This document shows, piece by piece, positions 1,034 to 40,036 of a stretch of 41,355 nucleotides of DNA. The DNA is taken from assembly GCA_021735185.1 (NCBI GenBank), contig JAIPHN010000002.1:1-41355 (forward strand), written 5' to 3'. Positions within the stretch are counted from its first letter, which is position 1. Each line of letters begins with the position of its first letter. The stretch comes from Candidatus Bipolaricaulota bacterium (GTDB lineage: Bacteria; Bipolaricaulota; Bipolaricaulia; M55B111). The notes beneath the pieces were generated by a model. The model did no database searches. It worked only from the letters and a program-made list of their open reading frames with translations, and had not been told where the DNA came from. The position numbers and the translations under genes were made by a program.

Positions 1034-1597
1034 TTAATGCTCCTCGTAGTACTCCGCAAAACGAACCATAAAATCTCGCAAGAGCTCAGCGAGCTTCACC
1101 CTCTTTCCAGTTAATTCCTTCATCGTCGCAGAATTCCCTTCTATCGATTCCGGCAAACTGGAAACGGTATTATTCACGTTAATTCCAACCCCGATTATGT
1201 AATTGTCGTCGCTTTCCTGGATCAACATTCCGGCAATTTTCCCCTCACCCGCTATCAGATCATTTGGGCGAGAGATTCTTGTCTCGATACCATAATCAGC
1301 CAGTAGGTCCTTAATCAGTTTTAAAACCACAACGTAAAACTCGGCGGAAGTCGAAGTGGGCAAACAACCGACCAAAAATGAAAACCATAAACCGCCCCTG
1401 GGGGAATACCATTTTCGCTTGCCTTTTCCATGACCGTGTTTTTGCCTGGAGGCAAGCACGATAGTTCCCGGCTTTAAGTCCGAGCGATTTCTAATAAAGC
1501 TATTGGTGGAATCCAGTTCGTCTCGCCGAATAAACTCTTCCCAGAAGGACGATCGGTTGGTTAGATCTCTAATTAAATCCCAATCAGGCAAGATCAA
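1034..1597 (-). CDS. birA: biotin--protein ligase-like protein, catalytic core only (187 aa)
   Basis: HGHGKGKRKWYSPRGGLWFSF matches the BPL signature GRGRxGRxWxSPxGxLxxS. The apparent TTG start overlaps the ileS stop (TTGA at 1594-1597). The protein ends where the C-terminal beta-domain of BPLs normally begins. Confidence 0.7.
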   Translation of the reverse strand: MILPDWDLIRDLTNRSSFWEEFIRRDELDSTNSFIRNRSDLKPGTIVLASRQKHGHGKGKRKWYSPRGGLWFSFLVGCLPTSTSAEFYVVVLKLIKDLLADYGIETRISRPNDLIAGEGKIAGMLIQESDDNYIIGVGINVNNTVSSLPESIEGNSATMKELTGKRVKLAELLRDFMVRFAEYYEEH

Positions 1598-4500
1598 CCA
1601 ACCCGGTTCAAAGCTATCCTTGCTTCCTTGCCGTTTAACCCCTCCTCCGAAAAGGCGTCCGGCTTTTTCGGAAGGCTCCCGGACGTTAACTCCTGCGTCA
1701 GAGTTTCCTTCCGAAGATAATCAGCATGGCTTTTTACCGCGGAATCTATCTCTTCATCCGCGGTGTAATATAGCTCGATTCTGTCAGTGACTTCGAAACC
1801 GGCTTCTTTTCGCAGCTGCTGAACTCTCCTTATCAGTTCTCTGACATAGCCTTCCTGTTTTAGGTCTTCATCCAGACTTGTATTGAGGAGCAAGGCGTAA
1901 TCATTGTCCTCTACCCGAACAAAAGATTCTCCCGGTTTGTAACTGACTTCTACGTCCGCCGAGTCGACTGAAAACATTTCTCCTTCCAGATTTACCTCGA
2001 ACTCGCCATTTTCATCCAGGGCTTCGACAATTATTTCGTCCTCGATTTCTTCGATCCTGTCACCAATTTTTTGAGCGTTTTCCTCGAACCTGGGACCAAG
2101 TTTACTGAAATCAGGTTCAACAACTGGAACGTAATAATCCTGAAGTTTCTCTTTAAACTCGACCTCTTTTATATTTAGTTCTTCTTTCAACAGTTCGAGG
2201 GATTCGCCTGAGAGACCGTCAAAATCTTTTTTCGGCTGGACTATTAACTGGCTGAGCGGTTGTCTTACCTTGATTTCTGCTTGATTCCGAGCCTTTCTTC
2301 CCATTGCAGTCAACTTCCGTACCTCGCTCATGTGGCTTTCGAGGTCTTCATCCAGTGCGTCGGGGTCAGCTTCTGGCCAGTCCGCCAGGTGAACACTTTC
2401 CGGACCACCGGATCGGAGATTTTCGTAAAGCTCTTCGGCGAGAAACGGGGTAAACGGAGAAAATAGTTTGCTCAATTCCATCAAAGAGTTATAAAGTGTC
2501 GCATGAGCGGCCAACTTATCGTCGCCGGATTCATCGCTCCAGAACCGATCACGAGAGCAGCGAACATACCAGTTGCTCAAATCGTCAACAAAATTCTCAA
2601 TTGCAGCTGTGGCAGAAGGTACGTCGTAATCATCTAGCGATTCTGTTACCCGCTCAATGGTTTTGTTTAATCTTGAGTTTATCCATTTATCCAGCAGAGA
2701 AAGCTCGAGGTCTTCAGAATCGATCTCTTCGGGGTTAAAGTCATCGATCTCCGCATAGAGGGAGAAGAAATTATATGTATTCCTTACCGTATCGAGAAAC
2801 TTGTAGAGAACCTCTCCCGGACCATCTTCTTCCAGACGCCTGGTTTTCCAGGGAGCAGTGGAAGAGTAAAGGTACCATCTGACGGCATCTGCCCCGTACT
2901 CCTCGATCATATCCCAGGGGTCGATAACATTTCCTTTGCTTTTACTCATAGCGTTTCCCTCGGAATCCAGTCCGTACCCGGTCACCAGAACGTTCTCGAA
3001 AGAGGACTGGCCATGCAATAAAGTACTCGTTACCAGCAAAGTATAAAACCACCCTCGGGTCTGGTCCTGACCCTCGCAGATGAAGTCAGCCGGAAAGAGT
3101 CTCTGGAATTCATCATGGTTCTCGAAAGGATAGTGAAGCTGAGCCGTATGCATCGAACCGGAATCAAACCAGGTGTCGAGAACGTGTTCGACTCGCTCCA
3201 TCTTTCCCTGACAGTTTGGACAATTTAATTTTACCTCGTCTATATATGGTCGATGCATCTCCACGTTCTCCGCTAGCTCTTTATCCCGGGCGTGCTCGAC
3301 GAGTTCCTTGCGGCTGCCAATCGCCAGTTCGTGGCCACAGTCCTCACAGGTCCAGATATTCAAAGGCGTTCCCCAGTACCGATCCCGACTCAAAGCCCAA
3401 TCCTTCAAATTGTCAAGAAAATCACCAAATCGACCGTCTTTCATGTGTTCCGGGTGCCAGTTTATAGCTTGATTATTCTCGATTATTTCATCTTTTTTGT
3501 CGGTCGTCTCGATATACCAGGAATCCAGGGCAAAATACAGTAACGGAGTATCACAGCGCCAGCAGAAAGGATATTCGTGCTCGTAACTTTCGTGGCGAAG
3601 GAGACAATCGCGTTTTTCCAGGTCCTGAACGATCTCATCATCCGCGTCTTTGACGAACTCGCCTTCGGCGAAAGGGAATTTATCTGTGAATTTTCCATTG
3701 AGGTTAAGCGGCTGGACGAACGGTATCCCTTTCTTTTCCCCAAGCTCCGCGTCCTCTTCCCCAAAGGAAGGAGCGACGTGTACTATTCCCGTACCTTCAT
3801 CCAGAGTTACAAAGTCGGCATTATGAACCACGTAAGCATCTTCGTCTTCGGAAAGACGGTAAGGTGGATCGTAGCTCAAGCCGACTAATTCCTCACCACT
3901 AAACTCATCAATCGTTTCGTAATCCGGACCAAGAACTTTGTCCAGAAGGGCTTTTGCCATTACCAACTTTTCCCCGTGAACCTCCACCTTCGCGTACCAG
4001 AGTTCGTCGCTGACGGCAAGAGCAGTATTGGAAGGAATCGTCCATGGCGTCGTAGTCCAGGCCAGAAGGCTTAAGCCATCTTCCCCCTCGATAGGAAATT
4101 TGACAAAGATCGACGGATCCTCAGTCATCTCGTAGCCCTGAGCGACTTCGTGGGAAGAGAGTCCGGTACCACAGCGCGGGCAATAGGGAAGCACTTTGTG
4201 ACCCTTATAGAGCAAGCCCTGTTCCCAGATATTCTTGAGCTCCCACCAAAGTGTTTCTATGTAATCATCTTCGTAAGTAATATATGGGTCGTCCAGATCA
4301 ATCCAGAACCCCATTCGTTCGATCATCCTTTCCCATTCCTGTTTGTACTCCCAGACACTCTCCTTGCACTTTTCAACGAAGTTCTCTATCCCGTACTCCT
4401 CGATCTCTTCCTTGTTTTCCAGCCCCAGGTCTTTCTCAACCTCCAGCTCAACCGGAAGCCCGTGAGTATCCCAGCCACCTTTTCTCTCCACATGATACCC

Positions 4501-4725
4501 CTGCATAGCTTTATATCGAGGGAATAGGTCCTTATAAACTCGGGCCATCAGATGCCCAAAATGGGGTTTTCCATTTGCAGTCGGCGGTCCCTCGTAGAAA
4601 ACCCATTCCTCGTTGCCTTCAGCCTGTTCTACGCTACGCTGGAAAACTTCCTCTTCTTCCCAGAAACCCATAACCTCTTTTTCGCGCTCAAGAGGATCTT
4701 CCGTCAAATCACCGTAAGTCGGCAT
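1594..4725 (-). CDS. ileS: isoleucyl-tRNA synthetase (long, type-2-like, 1043 aa)
   Basis: Class I motifs are present: PPTANGKPHFGH (HIGH region) and AMSKSKGN (KMSKS region). An editing insertion and Cys-rich CPRCGT / CPNCQG segments are also seen. SD GGAGG lies upstream of the ATG at 4725. Confidence 0.95.
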   Translation of the reverse strand: MPTYGDLTEDPLEREKEVMGFWEEEEVFQRSVEQAEGNEEWVFYEGPPTANGKPHFGHLMARVYKDLFPRYKAMQGYHVERKGGWDTHGLPVELEVEKDLGLENKEEIEEYGIENFVEKCKESVWEYKQEWERMIERMGFWIDLDDPYITYEDDYIETLWWELKNIWEQGLLYKGHKVLPYCPRCGTGLSSHEVAQGYEMTEDPSIFVKFPIEGEDGLSLLAWTTTPWTIPSNTALAVSDELWYAKVEVHGEKLVMAKALLDKVLGPDYETIDEFSGEELVGLSYDPPYRLSEDEDAYVVHNADFVTLDEGTGIVHVAPSFGEEDAELGEKKGIPFVQPLNLNGKFTDKFPFAEGEFVKDADDEIVQDLEKRDCLLRHESYEHEYPFCWRCDTPLLYFALDSWYIETTDKKDEIIENNQAINWHPEHMKDGRFGDFLDNLKDWALSRDRYWGTPLNIWTCEDCGHELAIGSRKELVEHARDKELAENVEMHRPYIDEVKLNCPNCQGKMERVEHVLDTWFDSGSMHTAQLHYPFENHDEFQRLFPADFICEGQDQTRGWFYTLLVTSTLLHGQSSFENVLVTGYGLDSEGNAMSKSKGNVIDPWDMIEEYGADAVRWYLYSSTAPWKTRRLEEDGPGEVLYKFLDTVRNTYNFFSLYAEIDDFNPEEIDSEDLELSLLDKWINSRLNKTIERVTESLDDYDVPSATAAIENFVDDLSNWYVRCSRDRFWSDESGDDKLAAHATLYNSLMELSKLFSPFTPFLAEELYENLRSGGPESVHLADWPEADPDALDEDLESHMSEVRKLTAMGRKARNQAEIKVRQPLSQLIVQPKKDFDGLSGESLELLKEELNIKEVEFKEKLQDYYVPVVEPDFSKLGPRFEENAQKIGDRIEEIEDEIIVEALDENGEFEVNLEGEMFSVDSADVEVSYKPGESFVRVEDNDYALLLNTSLDEDLKQEGYVRELIRRVQQLRKEAGFEVTDRIELYYTADEEIDSAVKSHADYLRKETLTQELTSGSLPKKPDAFSEEGLNGKEARIALNRVG

Positions 4726-4849
4726 AACTACCTCCGTTAATTTTCGCCTCCGTGGGTCGATACTTAAAACATATTAAAATATATCCAAGACAAATGATTA
4801 TCTTACAAATTCAGCCCAGTGATAATCAATCTTTTTCAGAAACCTTTGA

Positions 4850-4921
4850 ATTTTTAATTCAAAAAGTTCACAGTCAAACTTGCTAATTTTCTTAGAACTA
4901 TAGCCAGTTAGTGGGTTGGAT
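4850..4921 (+). repeat. interspersed intergenic element, partial copy F (tail module)
   Basis: CAGTTAGTG (4905-4913) followed by TTGG (4916-4919) matches the copy A1 tail CAGTTAGTGTTGG. CTTAGAACTA matches CTAGAACTA in copy E. TTCAAAAAG matches TTCAAAAACG in copy D. Confidence 0.4.
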
Positions 4922-10763: not shown

Positions 10764-10897
10764 GCAGTCAAGAATTCCGGCCAAGGGACGGGGCTTGTAG
10801 AAAGTCCCTTTTTAATAGTTTTTTCGGTCTTTTACAACACGAGACCCAGCATCCCCAGGGCAAGCCCTGGGGGGTTCTCAGTTAGTGTTGGTAAAAG
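10764..10897 (+). repeat. interspersed intergenic element, copy A1 (short form without internal hairpin)
   Basis: Four exact blocks are shared with copy D about 29 kb away: GGGGCTTGTAGAAA, CGAGACCCAGCA, CATCCCCAGGGCAAGCCCTGGG and GGTTCTCAG. The tail is TTGGTAAAAG. An 8-bp hairpin lies at 10853-10872. Confidence 0.9.
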
Positions 10898-11625
10898 TGT
10901 ACTAAGATTTCATTTGTGGCCTTGATTCTGGCTATTTAAATTTCAAAATGTTCTAAAGAATACAATGTATGTGAACTTTAAATATTAAAAAGCGAACAAA
11001 CAATTCAATCATTTAAGAGTCTTTGAGTTCTACAACCTGCTTCACTTTAATAAAAAGGAACTGAAAAGAAGTACTAGTTTAAATACTCCGATACTAGCCA
11101 GACACTGTCGGAACTTTGTTCTTGACAGTTGGTCAAAAAAGGAGTTAGTCAAGACAGTCCTAAGGCAAAAATCCAACCAAATAGGGCCCCAACAACTCTT
11201 CTGTTTTTTTAGTGACCTCACGTAATCCCCTATTTCAGGATTACAACATTTGACCTGTTAATAAGGATGATCTCGAGAAAAGTCACGATCCCAGATATTG
11301 CCTAGCTTCCGGTATGGCCGACTGTTTAAAGAGTAAGTTAAACCTTGAACTAAGTGGCTTAATTGACCATTAAAAGGTAATGGTTTTTTCGATCTTCCGA
11401 AAATTACTCAGGTAATTACGAAAAGATAAAGGGACTGGTGTTTTCCATTAATGACTTCCTGATGATTTTGGGCTTTGGCGTTCTTCTGAAACTTCTCGAC
11501 GAAACCCTTACGGAACTGAACTATTTCACGAGCCGGTTAACCGAAATAACAGATCTTTAAAAGCTCAGACCCGAGAAGCCCTGGTCCGAGGCAGGTTCAC
11601 CTTCGGGGGACTATATTGAATCATA
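10898..11625 (+). repeat. cluster of decayed copies of the same element (about three, eye-aligned)
   Basis: At 11015-11165, GTCTTTGAGTTCTACAAC and CCAGACACTGTCGGAACTTTGTTC resemble the D left arm plus loop start CCAGCAGTCAATTCGGAACTGGCTTTGTAC. At about 11190-11330, TGTTTTTTTAGTGACC..ATTACAACATTTGACCTG is seen. At about 11420-11625, TCTTTAAAAGCTCAGACCC..AAGCCCTGG..GGTTCAC is seen. Confidence 0.35.
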
Positions 11626-11900
11626 TTAACCAATTGCAAAAAGAGTTAGAGTTCCAATCAGAGGAAAAACATGCTACCGTTTTGCTGAAAAACCCTGTGT
11701 TTCCTCGAGGTGAGATCAGGTAAAATAGTAGTAGGTAATAGTTAAAGAATTGAGCCCGTAAAATATAAAAAGTCAGAACTACAGGGGTTGTTGACCGGGA
11801 ATTTAATAGAATTTATCCTAATTTGTTGTTATTATTGAAATCATACTTTCATCAAGTTAGCAGATCTATTAAATAACATTAGGAGGTGGGTTTTTTAACA

Positions 11901-21070: not shown

Positions 21071-21221
21071 TGGAGGAATTCCGATTTTTTCGGTTTCTTT
21101 AGAGACACATTTAGTTCGATTGGTTAAAGCCATTAAGGCAAATCAGGAGAACTTACAAACTCCTCTGGCGGGCCACGTTAACGAGGGGTGCAAATACAGT
21201 GATTCAATTCAAAGCAGAATA

Positions 21222-21473
21222 GGTCAAGAACCCCGCCCAAAGTGACGGGGCTGTTGAAAAATAAATTTAACTACGAACTTAGGCCTTTTACAAAAGATGA
21301 CCCAGCAGTCAATCGAGGAAGTTTTCGAATTTATATACGGTATAAGAAATGAACGCATAGCTAATCACTAGGCGCTTTTAAGGATAATGTACTCGATTGA
21401 CTGCTGGACAAGAACCGGCCGATTCATCCCCGCAGCAAGCTACGGGGTTTTCTCGGCGATTTTGGTAAAAAGC
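21222..21473 (+). repeat. interspersed intergenic element, copy B (long form)
   Basis: 5' GGTCAAGAA plus hairpin CCCCG..CGGGG, then CTGTTGAAAAA and TTTTACAAAAGATGACCCAGCA. Perfect 16-bp arms lie at 21302-21317 and 21392-21407 around 74 nt. The hairpin CCCCGCAG-CAAG-CTACGGGG lies at 21428-21447. The tail is TTGGTAAAAAG. Confidence 0.85.
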
Positions 21474-21558
21474 CTGTTTAGTTTGCAAACACTAAAGAGC
21501 GACAAAACTAGACGATAAATTTAAAAACTTAATTGCATATCAGGTAGAGGTACAAAAT

Positions 21559-21672
21559 ATGAACAAGATCATTGAAGAGAAGACAGTCGGCGGCCTAAGG
21601 AAGAAGATAGCCGAAAAGGACGACGGAAGGATAATTGTTTACTACGATCGAACACCCAATAAGGAGGAATAA
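21559..21672 (+). CDS. 37-codon ORF resembling the N-terminal extension of long-form GalT proteins
   Basis: Sequence is MNKIIEEKTVGGLRKKIAEKDDGRIIVYYDRTPNKEE. The DGRxxVYYD block resembles the LADGRELVYYD N-terminus I recall from actinobacterial GalT. SD AGAGG lies 8 nt upstream. The TAA stop overlaps the galT ATG (TAATG). The frame differs from galT. Confidence 0.5.
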   Translation: MNKIIEEKTVGGLRKKIAEKDDGRIIVYYDRTPNKEE

Positions 21673-22661
21673 TGCCCGAACTTCGCTGGAACCCGATTCT
21701 CAAGCGGTGGAATATAATATCTGACAAAAGACAGGATAGGCCGGTGCTTCCAGAAGATAGTTGTCCTCTGTGCCCGGGCGTTCTCGAAGTTCCCCAGGAT
21801 GATTACTACATAGTGACGTTCGAAAACAGGTTCCCCTCCCTCGAGCGTAACCCAGAAAACCCAAACCTAAAAGGGGATTCATTTTACAGGGTACGAGAAA
21901 ACAGGGGAGTATGTGAGGTGGTCCTTTATTCTTCCGATCACGACGTGCCTCCTGCCGATCTCGGCTTCAGGAGACTGGAAGATTTGATCACTGTCTGGAA
22001 GAACAGGTTCGCGGAACTCGGGAGCGAGGAATTCATCGATTACGTATACATCTTCGAAAACCGTGGGAGGGAGATCGGAGTCACGCTGGATCACCCTCAT
22101 GGCCAGCTTTACGCTTTCCCCTTCGTTCCGCCACTCGCTCGTCGGTCAATTGAGAGCGCCAGATCTCACTCCGAGCAACACGGTGAGTGCATTTTCTGTC
22201 GCGTCCTGGAAAAAGAACAAAACTTTGGTAAAAGAATCATCTGGCAGGACGACAATTTCGTGGCTTTTGTCCCGTTTTACGCCAGGTTACCGTACGAGAT
22301 CCATCTTTACCCAAGGCGGCATTTCCCGACTATCACTTCTCTAAATGAGGACGAAAGGAGCTCTCTTGCGAGGGGAATCAAGACGATATTAATGAAGTAC
22401 AGGAAACTGTTTCCGATAGACGACTTTCCCTATATTTCGAGTTTCCACCAGGCTCCTGTCGATGAAAAAGACCATTCCTATTATCATTTTCACCTGGAAT
22501 TCTATTCTCTACAGCGAGCAGAAGATAAAATCAAGTACAGAGCCGGCGTTGAGACGGGGACCTCGACCTTTATCTCCTCTCTTTCCCCGGAGAAGATGGC
22601 AGAGGACCTGCAGGACGTTCAGGTGAATACACGTTCAGAACAAAAAGATGAAAATCGATAA
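21672..22661 (+). CDS. galT: galactose-1-phosphate uridylyltransferase
   Basis: CPLCPG is the zinc site and DHPHGQ is the HPH active site. FENRFPSL and FENRG blocks are also present. Confidence 0.9.
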   Translation: MPELRWNPILKRWNIISDKRQDRPVLPEDSCPLCPGVLEVPQDDYYIVTFENRFPSLERNPENPNLKGDSFYRVRENRGVCEVVLYSSDHDVPPADLGFRRLEDLITVWKNRFAELGSEEFIDYVYIFENRGREIGVTLDHPHGQLYAFPFVPPLARRSIESARSHSEQHGECIFCRVLEKEQNFGKRIIWQDDNFVAFVPFYARLPYEIHLYPRRHFPTITSLNEDERSSLARGIKTILMKYRKLFPIDDFPYISSFHQAPVDEKDHSYYHFHLEFYSLQRAEDKIKYRAGVETGTSTFISSLSPEKMAEDLQDVQVNTRSEQKDENR

Positions 22662-23838: not shown

Positions 23839-23884
23839 CACGTGATTCTAGCTATATAGTCTTGTACCAAAATTACGCGGTTTT

Positions 23885-24126
23885 GAGACCTCGTAAAGTT
23901 AACACTAGATTAATCGAGAGATTGATTTTGCAACCAGGAGTTGGTCCAGCACCCAGATGAGCTCCGGAACATGGATCAAGATTTTTACTTCACTATTGTA
24001 TGGGCTGCCACGCTCGTTCAGTGGTAGATTATACTTCCAGGTTACTTTTCTCATCTGGGTGCTGGTTGAAAGTCTCGAGAGAGCAAGTTGGTCTTAACCT
24101 TTTAGAGGTCACCAACTGGGTAAAGC
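23885..24126 (+). repeat. interspersed intergenic element, copy C (diverged long form)
   Basis: GGTCCAGCACCCAG aligns with D GACCCAGCACCCAG. Perfect 16-bp arms CCAGCACCCAGATGAG (23946-23961) and CTCATCTGGGTGCTGG (24050-24065) enclose 88 nt. The tail is CTGGGTAAAGC. Confidence 0.65.
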
Positions 24127-24340
24127 AATTAGATTTCTCAAAAGGTAGCTAGTTCATCTTGTATACTCATTTAGAAGTTAGTCACGAGTGAGAAAATGGC
24201 ACAACTTAGTTAAACTTGGTTGGGCGAGAGGAGAGCGCACATTTTAGGTTGTAATAAACCGTAACATCTATTAACCTCATTTTGGAAACTTGAGTATTTA
24301 TATCCACTTTTATTCCAAAAAACACAGAAGGTGAGATACG

Positions 24341-39740: not shown

Positions 39741-39794
39741 CACGAATAGCTCAGTTACGAGATAAGTTTTCACTTTTTCAGGAACTATCTGAGA

Positions 39795-40036
39795 AGTCAA
39801 TTACCCCGCCCTTCCGCGCGGGGCTTGTAGAAAAACCCCTTTACAACCAAAAAACTACATACTTCAAAAACGCGAGACCCAGCACCCAGCAGTCAATTCG
39901 GAACTGGCTTTGTACCTGTATTGAACTTTAATGAGCAGGGCGAATTGACTGCTGGGTGCTTTATATCAAGTTAAGTTAACCAGCGGCTCATCCCCAGGGC
40001 AAGCCCTGGGTGGTTCTCAGCTATTATTGGCAAAAG
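39795..40036 (+). repeat. interspersed intergenic element, copy D (long form, archetype)
   Basis: AGTCAATTA plus a hairpin at 39804-39823, then GGGGCTTGTAGAAA, TTTACAAC and CGAGACCCAGCA. Perfect 20-bp arms lie at 39881-39900 and 39941-39960 around 40 nt. The hairpin CCCAGGG-CAAG-CCCTGGG lies at 39993-40010, followed by GGTTCTCAG and TTGGCAAAAG. Confidence 0.9.

Follow-up and report, generated by a model that had tools for sequence, protein, structure and literature searches.

The region 21222-21473 of the window (the whole stretch of 41,355 nt analysed here) contains hairpins whose sequences differ from those of two related copies elsewhere in the window, while the pairing in the stems is preserved. 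The question is what kind of element this is, and whether its pairing is used in RNA or in single-stranded DNA. According to the analysis described here, the region is, with a probability of about 0.85, one copy of about 245 bp of a non-autonomous element of the IS200/IS605 superfamily, a palindrome-associated transposable element (PATE). The assignment is based on the covariation between guide and target, on the left end shared with tnpB elements, and on the hairpin class, which flanks tnpA genes. Protein-less derivatives of IS200/IS605 elements are known as PATEs (PMC4810608; PMC10055086).

Copies of the repeat in the window

The window is an ordinary bacterial chromosome, which codes for a GH4 glycosidase, GalT, AlaRS, DnaN, IleRS, sugar-transport genes and others. 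By read mapping, it occurs in lake and hypersaline-lake metagenomes. One intergenic repeat of about 245-250 bp is present as three copies on the plus strand (A1, B and D), the element itself being read on the minus strand, and no further copy was detected within the window (Table 1). The window has three occurrences of the motif CATCCCCNNNGCAAGCNNNGGG, where 0.01 would be expected, indicating that the repeat is not due to chance. There is no protein-coding gene inside the element.

Compared with A1 and D, copy B has substitutions that leave the pairing intact. The left-end hairpin (the "3' hairpin" of the earlier note) reads CCCCAGGG-CAAG-CCCTGGGG in A1 and CCCCGCAG-CAAG-CTACGGGG in B, as had been described. 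In B, the stem position 5 is changed from A:T to G:C, the position 7 is changed from G:C to A:T, and the position 6 is a C.A mismatch. This hairpin had been described as identical in A1 and D; it is the same apart from the last G, which is T in D (CCCTGGGT) and had been missed. The long arms of B (CCAGCAGTCAATCGAG and CTCGATTGACTGCTGG) and those of D pair perfectly, and the CCCCG/CGGGG feet of the right-end hairpin (the "5' hairpin") are kept in both copies. The opposite strand of the conserved loop is G-CUUG-C, in agreement with the earlier note. The subfamily of B is GCAG/CTAC, and that of A1 and D is AGGG/CCCT.

Table 1. Positions of the three repeat copies in the window and of their parts
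Feature	Position	Strand	Remarks
Copy A1	10767-10895	Minus	Internally deleted, decayed copy
A1, left-end hairpin	10853-10872	Minus	
A1, TTTAC motif	10891-10895	Minus	
Copy B	21223-21469	Minus	Feature under study (region 21222-21473)
B, target (transposon-adjacent) motif 5'-TTTAC-3'	21465-21469	Minus (top)	Flanks the left end, outside the element proper
B, left end	21417-21464	Minus	17-nt linker, guide, imperfect palindrome, ATGAATC and outer stem
B, left-end guide (4 nt)	21448-21451	Minus	Top strand AAAA; subfamily consensus AAAG
B, left-end imperfect palindrome CCCCGTAG-CTTG-CTGCGGGG	21428-21447	Minus	Followed by the conserved ATGAATC
B, left-end outer stem	21417-21422 with 21453-21457	Minus	
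B, interior long hairpin	21302-21407	Minus	Arms 21302-21317 and 21392-21407, 16 bp perfect; 74-nt variable loop
B, interior spacer	21251-21301	Minus	Conserved CTTTTACAAA..GAC (plus strand), seen in the 14-copy alignment
B, right end	21223-21250	Minus	Hairpin 21231-21250, top strand CCCCGTCACTTTGGGCGGGG
B, right-end 8-nt tail TTCTTGAC	Ends the element at 21223	Minus	Sharp boundary at GTCAA
Copy D	39796-40034	Minus	Between the convergent genes alaS and dnaN
D, right-end hairpin	39804-39823	Minus	
D, long arms	39881-39900 and 39941-39960	Minus	20 perfect pairs, 40-nt loop
D, left-end hairpin	39992-40011	Minus	

The three window copies look old and partly decayed. The right-end hairpin of A1 is mutated and degraded (TTCCGGCC...), and A1 has neither the long hairpin nor ATGAATC, with a deletion junction at 10850/10851. 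Other metagenome copies run on into the hairpin arms exactly at this junction, and the interior of A1 was lost between CCAGC repeats. The target motif of D is mutated (GCAAA at 40030-40034). On the plus strand, the guide is TTTT in B against a subfamily consensus of CTTT, and GGTT in A1 and D against a consensus of CATT. As the guide and target positions deviate from the consensus, the window copies may be immobile.

In relatives with 87-90% identical DnaN, the gene order is kept and the element D is absent. For none of A1, B and D was a precise empty site detected in the metagenome contigs or in the DnaN-anchored relatives, the spacers of distant relatives being too diverged. In the alaS-dnaN spacer of a related strain with about 92% identical flanks (run X4), the 260 bases at 39772-40031 are replaced by 194 other bases. 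The dnaN-alaS spacer of another relative (L120, positions 1741-2000; 90% identical DnaN) has a different long hairpin, GTTACCCTCAGGGC...GCCTGAGGGCAAC, containing GGGATGAATACC, which resembles the ATGAATC located 3' of the left-end hairpin.

Two further observations concern the neighbourhood of the copies. Downstream of A1, the window at 10896-11885 is an A+T-rich stretch of about 1 kb with no ORF of at least 80 aa and no Rfam or tRNA match. This stretch is mostly absent or replaced in related strains, which show zero depth from 10909 to about 11316 (X2, X4) and a 246-nt skip from 11372 to 11619. At 21559-21675, a 38-codon ORF (MNKIIEEKTVGGLRKKIAEKDDGRIIVYYDRTPNKEE) is located directly upstream of galT, and its stop overlaps the galT start (TAATG).

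Distribution of the left-end module

The left-end module was searched in one genome per species using the pattern TCCCCNNNGCAAGCNNNGGGNNNTTCTC, for which about four chance matches are expected by our own estimate. The module was found at 113 loci in many bacterial and archaeal phyla. The bacterial loci include Bipolaricaulota, Thermotogae, Acidobacteriota, Chloroflexota, Gemmatimonadota, Verrucomicrobiota, Lentisphaerota, Gammaproteobacteria, Thermodesulfobacteriota, several candidate-phyla-radiation lineages and Elusimicrobia, and the archaeal loci are from Woesearchaeota, Thermococci and Bathyarchaeia. Many of the 113 loci are located at contig ends, which is the signature of an assembly-breaking repeat. 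In four hypersaline or lake metagenomes, reads cover the three window copies about 4 to more than 1000 times as deeply as the flanks. The copies within a clade have sharp, common boundaries.

No recurrent neighbouring protein family was detected by all-against-all blastp, the upstream ORFs being housekeeping genes. Rfam searches gave tRNAs only, both at the gathering threshold on the window and 18 related loci and at E-values up to 10 on 21080-21680, and the tRNA/tmRNA scan of the window gave none. Copy B has no blastn match in plasmids, and the 53-nt end of the Chloroflexota type gave only chance matches in phages. In the case of viral contigs, the motif scan gave one chance match, in a coding region, and the search with a TnpB alignment gave one distant TnpB without these ends. 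No description of the left-end module GAGAATR-hairpin-ATGAATC was found in the searched papers. The module is nearly identical across many bacterial and archaeal phyla, unlike the described PATEs. This family, whose left end hardly varies between the two domains, appears to be undescribed in these papers.

Some of the related loci have features of their own. In an Acidobacteriota genome bin (L012, positions 1089-4900), about 30 tRNA genes are arrayed on one strand, and one Acidobacteria-type copy of the element is inserted between two tRNAs of the array. A Haladaptatus halobius megaplasmid (NZ_CP085337.1; L114, about 2620-3053) contains an unannotated haloarchaeal version of about 430 nt, which ends GGCGATTCATCCCCGCCCTCAAGGGCGTGGTATTCTCGCC..TCTATAAA and has no visible TnpB-like ORF.

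Conservation of pairing and the folding strand

The search pattern fixed 19 positions, so that only the free positions are informative. At the three free stem positions, at least two of the three pairs are formed in 109 of the 112 distinct copies, and six fully complementary combinations are among the commonest. The outer stem NNNNGA/TCNNNN covaries too. According to the comparison of 82 distinct left-end modules, the structure is 79.1% paired against 68.8% in shuffled alignments, and the covariation score is 0.273 against 0.116; none of 500 shuffles reached this score, and slid controls gave 35-46%. A second alignment consists of 14 closely related full-length copies, from the window's own subfamily. 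In this local family, 91.7% of the cells are paired against 84.4% after shuffling, and 14 pairs are changed on both sides against 7.6 +/- 1.4. The paired percentage, the double-change count and the covariation score were not reached in any of 500 shuffles (slid controls, 26-44%).

These results indicate that the stems are kept when more copies are compared, with compensatory changes far above both the shuffled and the slid controls. The earlier note proposed that what is kept is the pairing as such, be it in RNA or single-stranded DNA, and this is borne out by covariation that is strong in the local family and across phyla. The shuffle control ignores the relatedness of the copies. A purely phylogenetic artefact is unlikely, however, because of the slid controls and the spread across phyla.

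The folding energies were compared with those of shuffled sequences, as had been suggested, and copy B folds better than 200 of 200 shuffles on both strands. Folded as RNA, copy B gives -90.4 kcal/mol (z -6.9) for the minus strand and -74.0 (z -3.6) for the plus strand; folded as DNA, it gives -42.4 (z -5.0) and -41.6 (z -4.2), respectively. Plus-strand C.A mismatches, which correspond to T.G wobbles on the minus strand, outnumber G.T by 23 to 5. From the 23:5 excess and the better folding energy, the folding strand is the minus strand. GC skew follows the gene orientation and was uninformative for the direction of replication. The C.A (T.G) pair is fixed at the position 6 in both terminal hairpins, and the mismatch of B recurs in eight database copies, including L003, L009, L018, L029, L035, L076 and L092. 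The sequence comparison indicates that this "mismatch" is a conserved feature of the subfamily, not decay.

Anatomy of the ends

Read 5' to 3' on the minus strand, TTTAC is followed by a linker of 17-18 nt ending AATG (consensus), the hairpin CCCCnnnG-CTTG-CnnnGGGG and ATGAATC. Next come the long hairpin, the hairpin CCCCGTCC-CTTG-GGGCGGGG and the tail, which ends TTGAC. The G+C-rich hairpins at both ends are alike and have the same orientation, and terminal inverted repeats are absent; in the Chloroflexota/Gemmatimonadota type, they hardly differ from each other. In IS200/IS605 elements, too, the hairpins of both ends point the same way, and each cleavage site is recognised through a 4-nt guide located 5' of the hairpin foot. 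The plus strand of all copies ends ..GTAAA, ..ATAAA or ..TTAAA, and the sequences diverge beyond this point. A MITE of the terminal-inverted-repeat type was rejected, as there is no flanking duplication and the end sequences, GTCAAGAACCCC... and ...TTGGTAAA, do not form inverted repeats. An integron attC site, a group II intron, a retron and a CRISPR-like mini-array were also considered and rejected, as was a riboswitch, copy D lying between convergent genes.

The 4-nt guide in the linker is complementary to TTAC position by position. Covariation links the guide base beside the hairpin to the final base of the target motif, and three combinations are found, TTAC/AATG, TTAT/AATA and TTAA/AATT. 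The guide and the target are complementary in 78 of 90 copies, against 33.7 +/- 4.2 after shuffling, and none of 10 000 shuffles reached this number. A position-by-position match of this kind is the "unusual complementarity" described for the IS200/IS605 family. As the guide/motif covariation is parallel, it fits TnpA acting on DNA and not an RNA helix. At the right end, CAAG is found with TGAC here, and GAAG is found with TCAC in two tnpB elements (L024 and L033, see below); the first two bases covary (CA/TG against GA/TC), in an ambiguous register, and the pairing of guide and end motif at the right end is convincing only in part for this subfamily.

The left linker of 17-18 nt and the right linker of 8 nt make the ends asymmetric, as in IS200/IS605. 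In that family the length of the left linker always exceeds that of the right one (15-16 against 8 nt), and the left linker of IS608 is 19 nt (PMC3597680). The target motif TTTAC and the end motif TTGAC differ at the position 3. The PATEs of Geobacillus stearothermophilus (ISGst) are similar in this respect, their target and end motifs differing at the positions 3 and 5 (PMC10055086).

The terminal hairpins of copy B are the imperfect palindromes at the left and right ends of an IS200/IS605-type element, and the medium best supported for their pairing is single-stranded DNA that a Y1 transposase reads. RNA as the medium is possible only for the interior hairpin.

Elements sharing the ends

A complete tnpB gene is headed by this left-end module, on the same strand, in L024 (Elusimicrobia) and L033 (Saccharibacteria). 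The TnpB proteins have 381-409 aa with the OrfB_IS605, Cas12f1-like_TNB and HTH_OrfB_IS605 domains. The right end, 3' of tnpB, is GAAG-hairpin-AGYGTCAC with an 8-nt tail. These TnpB-only elements of the IS605/IS1341 type share the left-end module, the class of the right-end hairpin and the 8-nt right tail with the element here, whereas they carry TnpB and end GTCAC.

A blastn search of plasmids with the module detected hairpins of the G-CAAG-C class flanking annotated IS200/IS605 tnpA genes on two cyanobacterial plasmids, those of Pseudanabaena PCC 7367 (NC_019690.1) and Synechocystis B12 (CP101711.1) (L117 and L119). The Pseudanabaena left end consists of TTTAA, 18 nt ending AATT and the hairpin, and its right end consists of AATA, the hairpin and an 8-nt tail ending TTAT. 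Like the element here, these IS200-type elements have a hairpin with the loop CTTG at both ends, in their case on the tnpA sense strand; unlike it, they are autonomous, with tnpA inside, and are without the long interior hairpin. Minimal elements of about 90 nt, with two G-CAAG-C hairpins only (..GGGGTATTCTC.. then ..GGGGAAT), were observed at L007, L015, L028 and L069 and in Piscirickettsia salmonis plasmids (36 records; L115, 3000-3090). They appear to be the left and right ends of the IS200-type elements seen with tnpA on the cyanobacterial plasmids.

No transposase was detected in the 41-kb window by Pfam on the 16 largest ORFs or by phmmer with TnpA and TnpB seeds on all ORFs of at least 60 aa. 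In the 113 loci, phmmer with two TnpA and two TnpB seeds on all ORFs detected no tnpA, only the seeds themselves being returned.

The copies are intergenic and high in number, their hairpins are G+C-rich, and copy D lies between convergent genes. These features are also expected of a repetitive extragenic palindrome of the REP/BIME type handled by RAYT, or of mere transcription terminators. REP/BIME sequences with RAYT are likewise tied to the IS200/IS605 world as intergenic high-copy hairpins. However, REPs are single short palindromes of 20-40 nt with a GTAG head, often in inverted pairs, without end asymmetry and without a target motif. The unit here measures about 250 bp and has no GTAG head; its two ends differ, and it has both a guide and a target motif. 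Against a terminator, the hairpins are not followed by a T-run on the plus strand, and no terminator was detected in B by the scan. The same end is, moreover, attached to tnpB genes. We consider both explanations very improbable.

Long interior hairpin

The arms of the long hairpin differ between subfamilies (CAGCAGTCAATCGAG, CAGCACTCACTTGAGG and CAGCACCCACTTTAGTATT), yet they are perfect over 13-20 bp. In the distal part, 7 of 10 pairs covary among the 14 copies. The Acidobacteria, Gammaproteobacteria and Thermotogae/Bipolaricaulota types have an interior hairpin at one common position, with unrelated sequence, and it was not seen in the Chloroflexota/Gemmatimonadota and Victivallales types. 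Metagenome variants skip the loop of the long hairpin of copy B. These comparisons indicate that the long interior hairpin is under selection for pairing. It may help the two ends to meet while the DNA is single-stranded, or it may be a stem of an omega RNA that TnpB uses in trans.

In one locus from another genome bin (L092, 84-303), B-like flanks are joined to the distal hairpin arms and the loop of D, almost base for base. The mosaic suggests recombination between subfamilies. As the loop of D is retained almost base for base, the loops are conserved within subfamilies.

The second role leads to another reading, in which the element is mainly a structured non-coding RNA gene and the pairing is kept in RNA. 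An example would be a guide-only omega RNA that TnpB uses in trans and that is transcribed on the minus strand, past the right end and into the flank. The interior hairpin shared in position by distant types with unrelated sequence, the 7 covarying distal pairs and the much better folding of the minus strand as RNA are in favour of it. The interior and the right end together are about 180 nt, a length covered by the size range of TnpB omega RNA scaffolds. In addition, PATEs often encode omega RNAs according to Meers et al. (PMC10055086). On the other hand, there is no Rfam family match, and no RNA run with the element sequence. Promoter and terminator scans of B and D gave no promoter-like site, no terminator in B and one weak terminator-like match inside D; a minus-strand TTGACT-16-TAAAAG noticed by eye was dropped, being unconserved between subfamilies. 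The interior has no sequence similarity to the tnpB-carrying L024 and L033, including their 3' (omega RNA) regions, and the parallel guide/target covariation is unlike an RNA helix. A non-coding RNA as the main identity of the element is thus doubtful. It is compatible with the transposon reading, and would then be limited to the interior hairpin.

The long central hairpin could also be an independent small palindromic mobile element nested in the PATE, its perfect arms resulting from recent origin or template-switch correction, not from selection. Hairpin-less copies are known (A1; L031), and the mosaic L092 joins B-like flanks to the hairpin and loop of D. Another mobile element in the window, of 387 bp, has a 16-bp perfect hairpin with the same CCAGCA...TGCTGG feet. 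However, the long hairpin is at the same position in distant subfamilies, and the hairpin-less copies are explained by deletion between the CCAGC repeats. Since the arms differ at many positions yet stay perfect, selection or repeated correction is needed. A nested element is improbable and is kept as a minor alternative.

The 387-bp element is an insertion at 23862-24248, which is missing from otherwise near-identical contigs of two metagenomes (0-2 flank differences; X2 contig), the joint being 23861 to 24249 with TTGTA on both sides. Its core at about 23916-24203 is very high-copy, with a depth reaching about 16000, the flanks having about 12. The perfect hairpin is CCAGCACCCAGATGAG/CTCATCTGGGTGCTGG (23946-24065), and the imperfect inverted ends are CCAAAATTACGCG and GCGCACATTTTAGG. 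The insertion is absent from the other loci. It looks like a different, currently mobile MITE-like element.

Proposed mechanism and comparison with known elements

By analogy with IS608 and ISGst, a Y1 (HUH) transposase TnpA encoded elsewhere would bind both hairpins on the single-stranded minus strand. TnpA would locate the cleavage sites by base pairing between guide and motif, and would cut after TTTAC and after TTGAC. The strand would then be excised as a circle and reinserted 3' of another TTTAC. Selection for recognition by TnpA would keep the stems paired, while the sequence drifts or is swapped between subfamilies. If the stems must pair for recognition and most positions are free, the paired changes by which B differs from A1 and D would result.

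The reference elements IS608 (Helicobacter pylori) and ISDra2 have several features in common with the element here. In both, subterminal imperfect hairpins are located on one strand at both ends, a TTAC-type target motif lies 5' of the left end, the left linker is longer than the right one, and the motif is matched, position by position, by a 4-nt guide on the 5' side of the hairpin foot. The guide/motif sequences of IS608 are AAAG/TTAC and GAAT/TCAA, and IS608 also has CCCC...GGGG hairpin feet. Unlike IS608 and ISDra2, the element here has no tnpA or tnpB, is about 245 bp in place of 1.3-1.8 kb, and has the long interior hairpin. The PATEs of haloarchaea, cyanobacteria and G. stearothermophilus are, like the element here, multi-copy and presumed to be mobilized in trans. 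The element is of a known kind.

Implications

As the covarying hairpins are explained as transposon ends and not as a new RNA class, a false annotation as non-coding RNA is avoided. The family provides a well-resolved, naturally occurring set of covariation data on the guide/target rule that Y1 transposases follow on DNA, in which three guide/motif pairs spanning bacteria and archaea are combined with one otherwise constant left end. In addition, the family is flagged here as a cause of breaks in many metagenome assemblies.

Should the interior be an omega RNA, TnpB guide scaffolds would be available from this family in compact form. We put forward tentatively, as a possibility on the unlikely side, that the PATEs here are mobile "guide-only" genes, in which the interior hairpin and the right end form the omega RNA scaffold, read on the minus strand into the flank. 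In that case, the element would borrow TnpA for movement and TnpB for re-copying into emptied sites from other elements, and the near-identical left-end module of many bacterial and archaeal phyla would mark one exceptionally promiscuous IS605 lineage.
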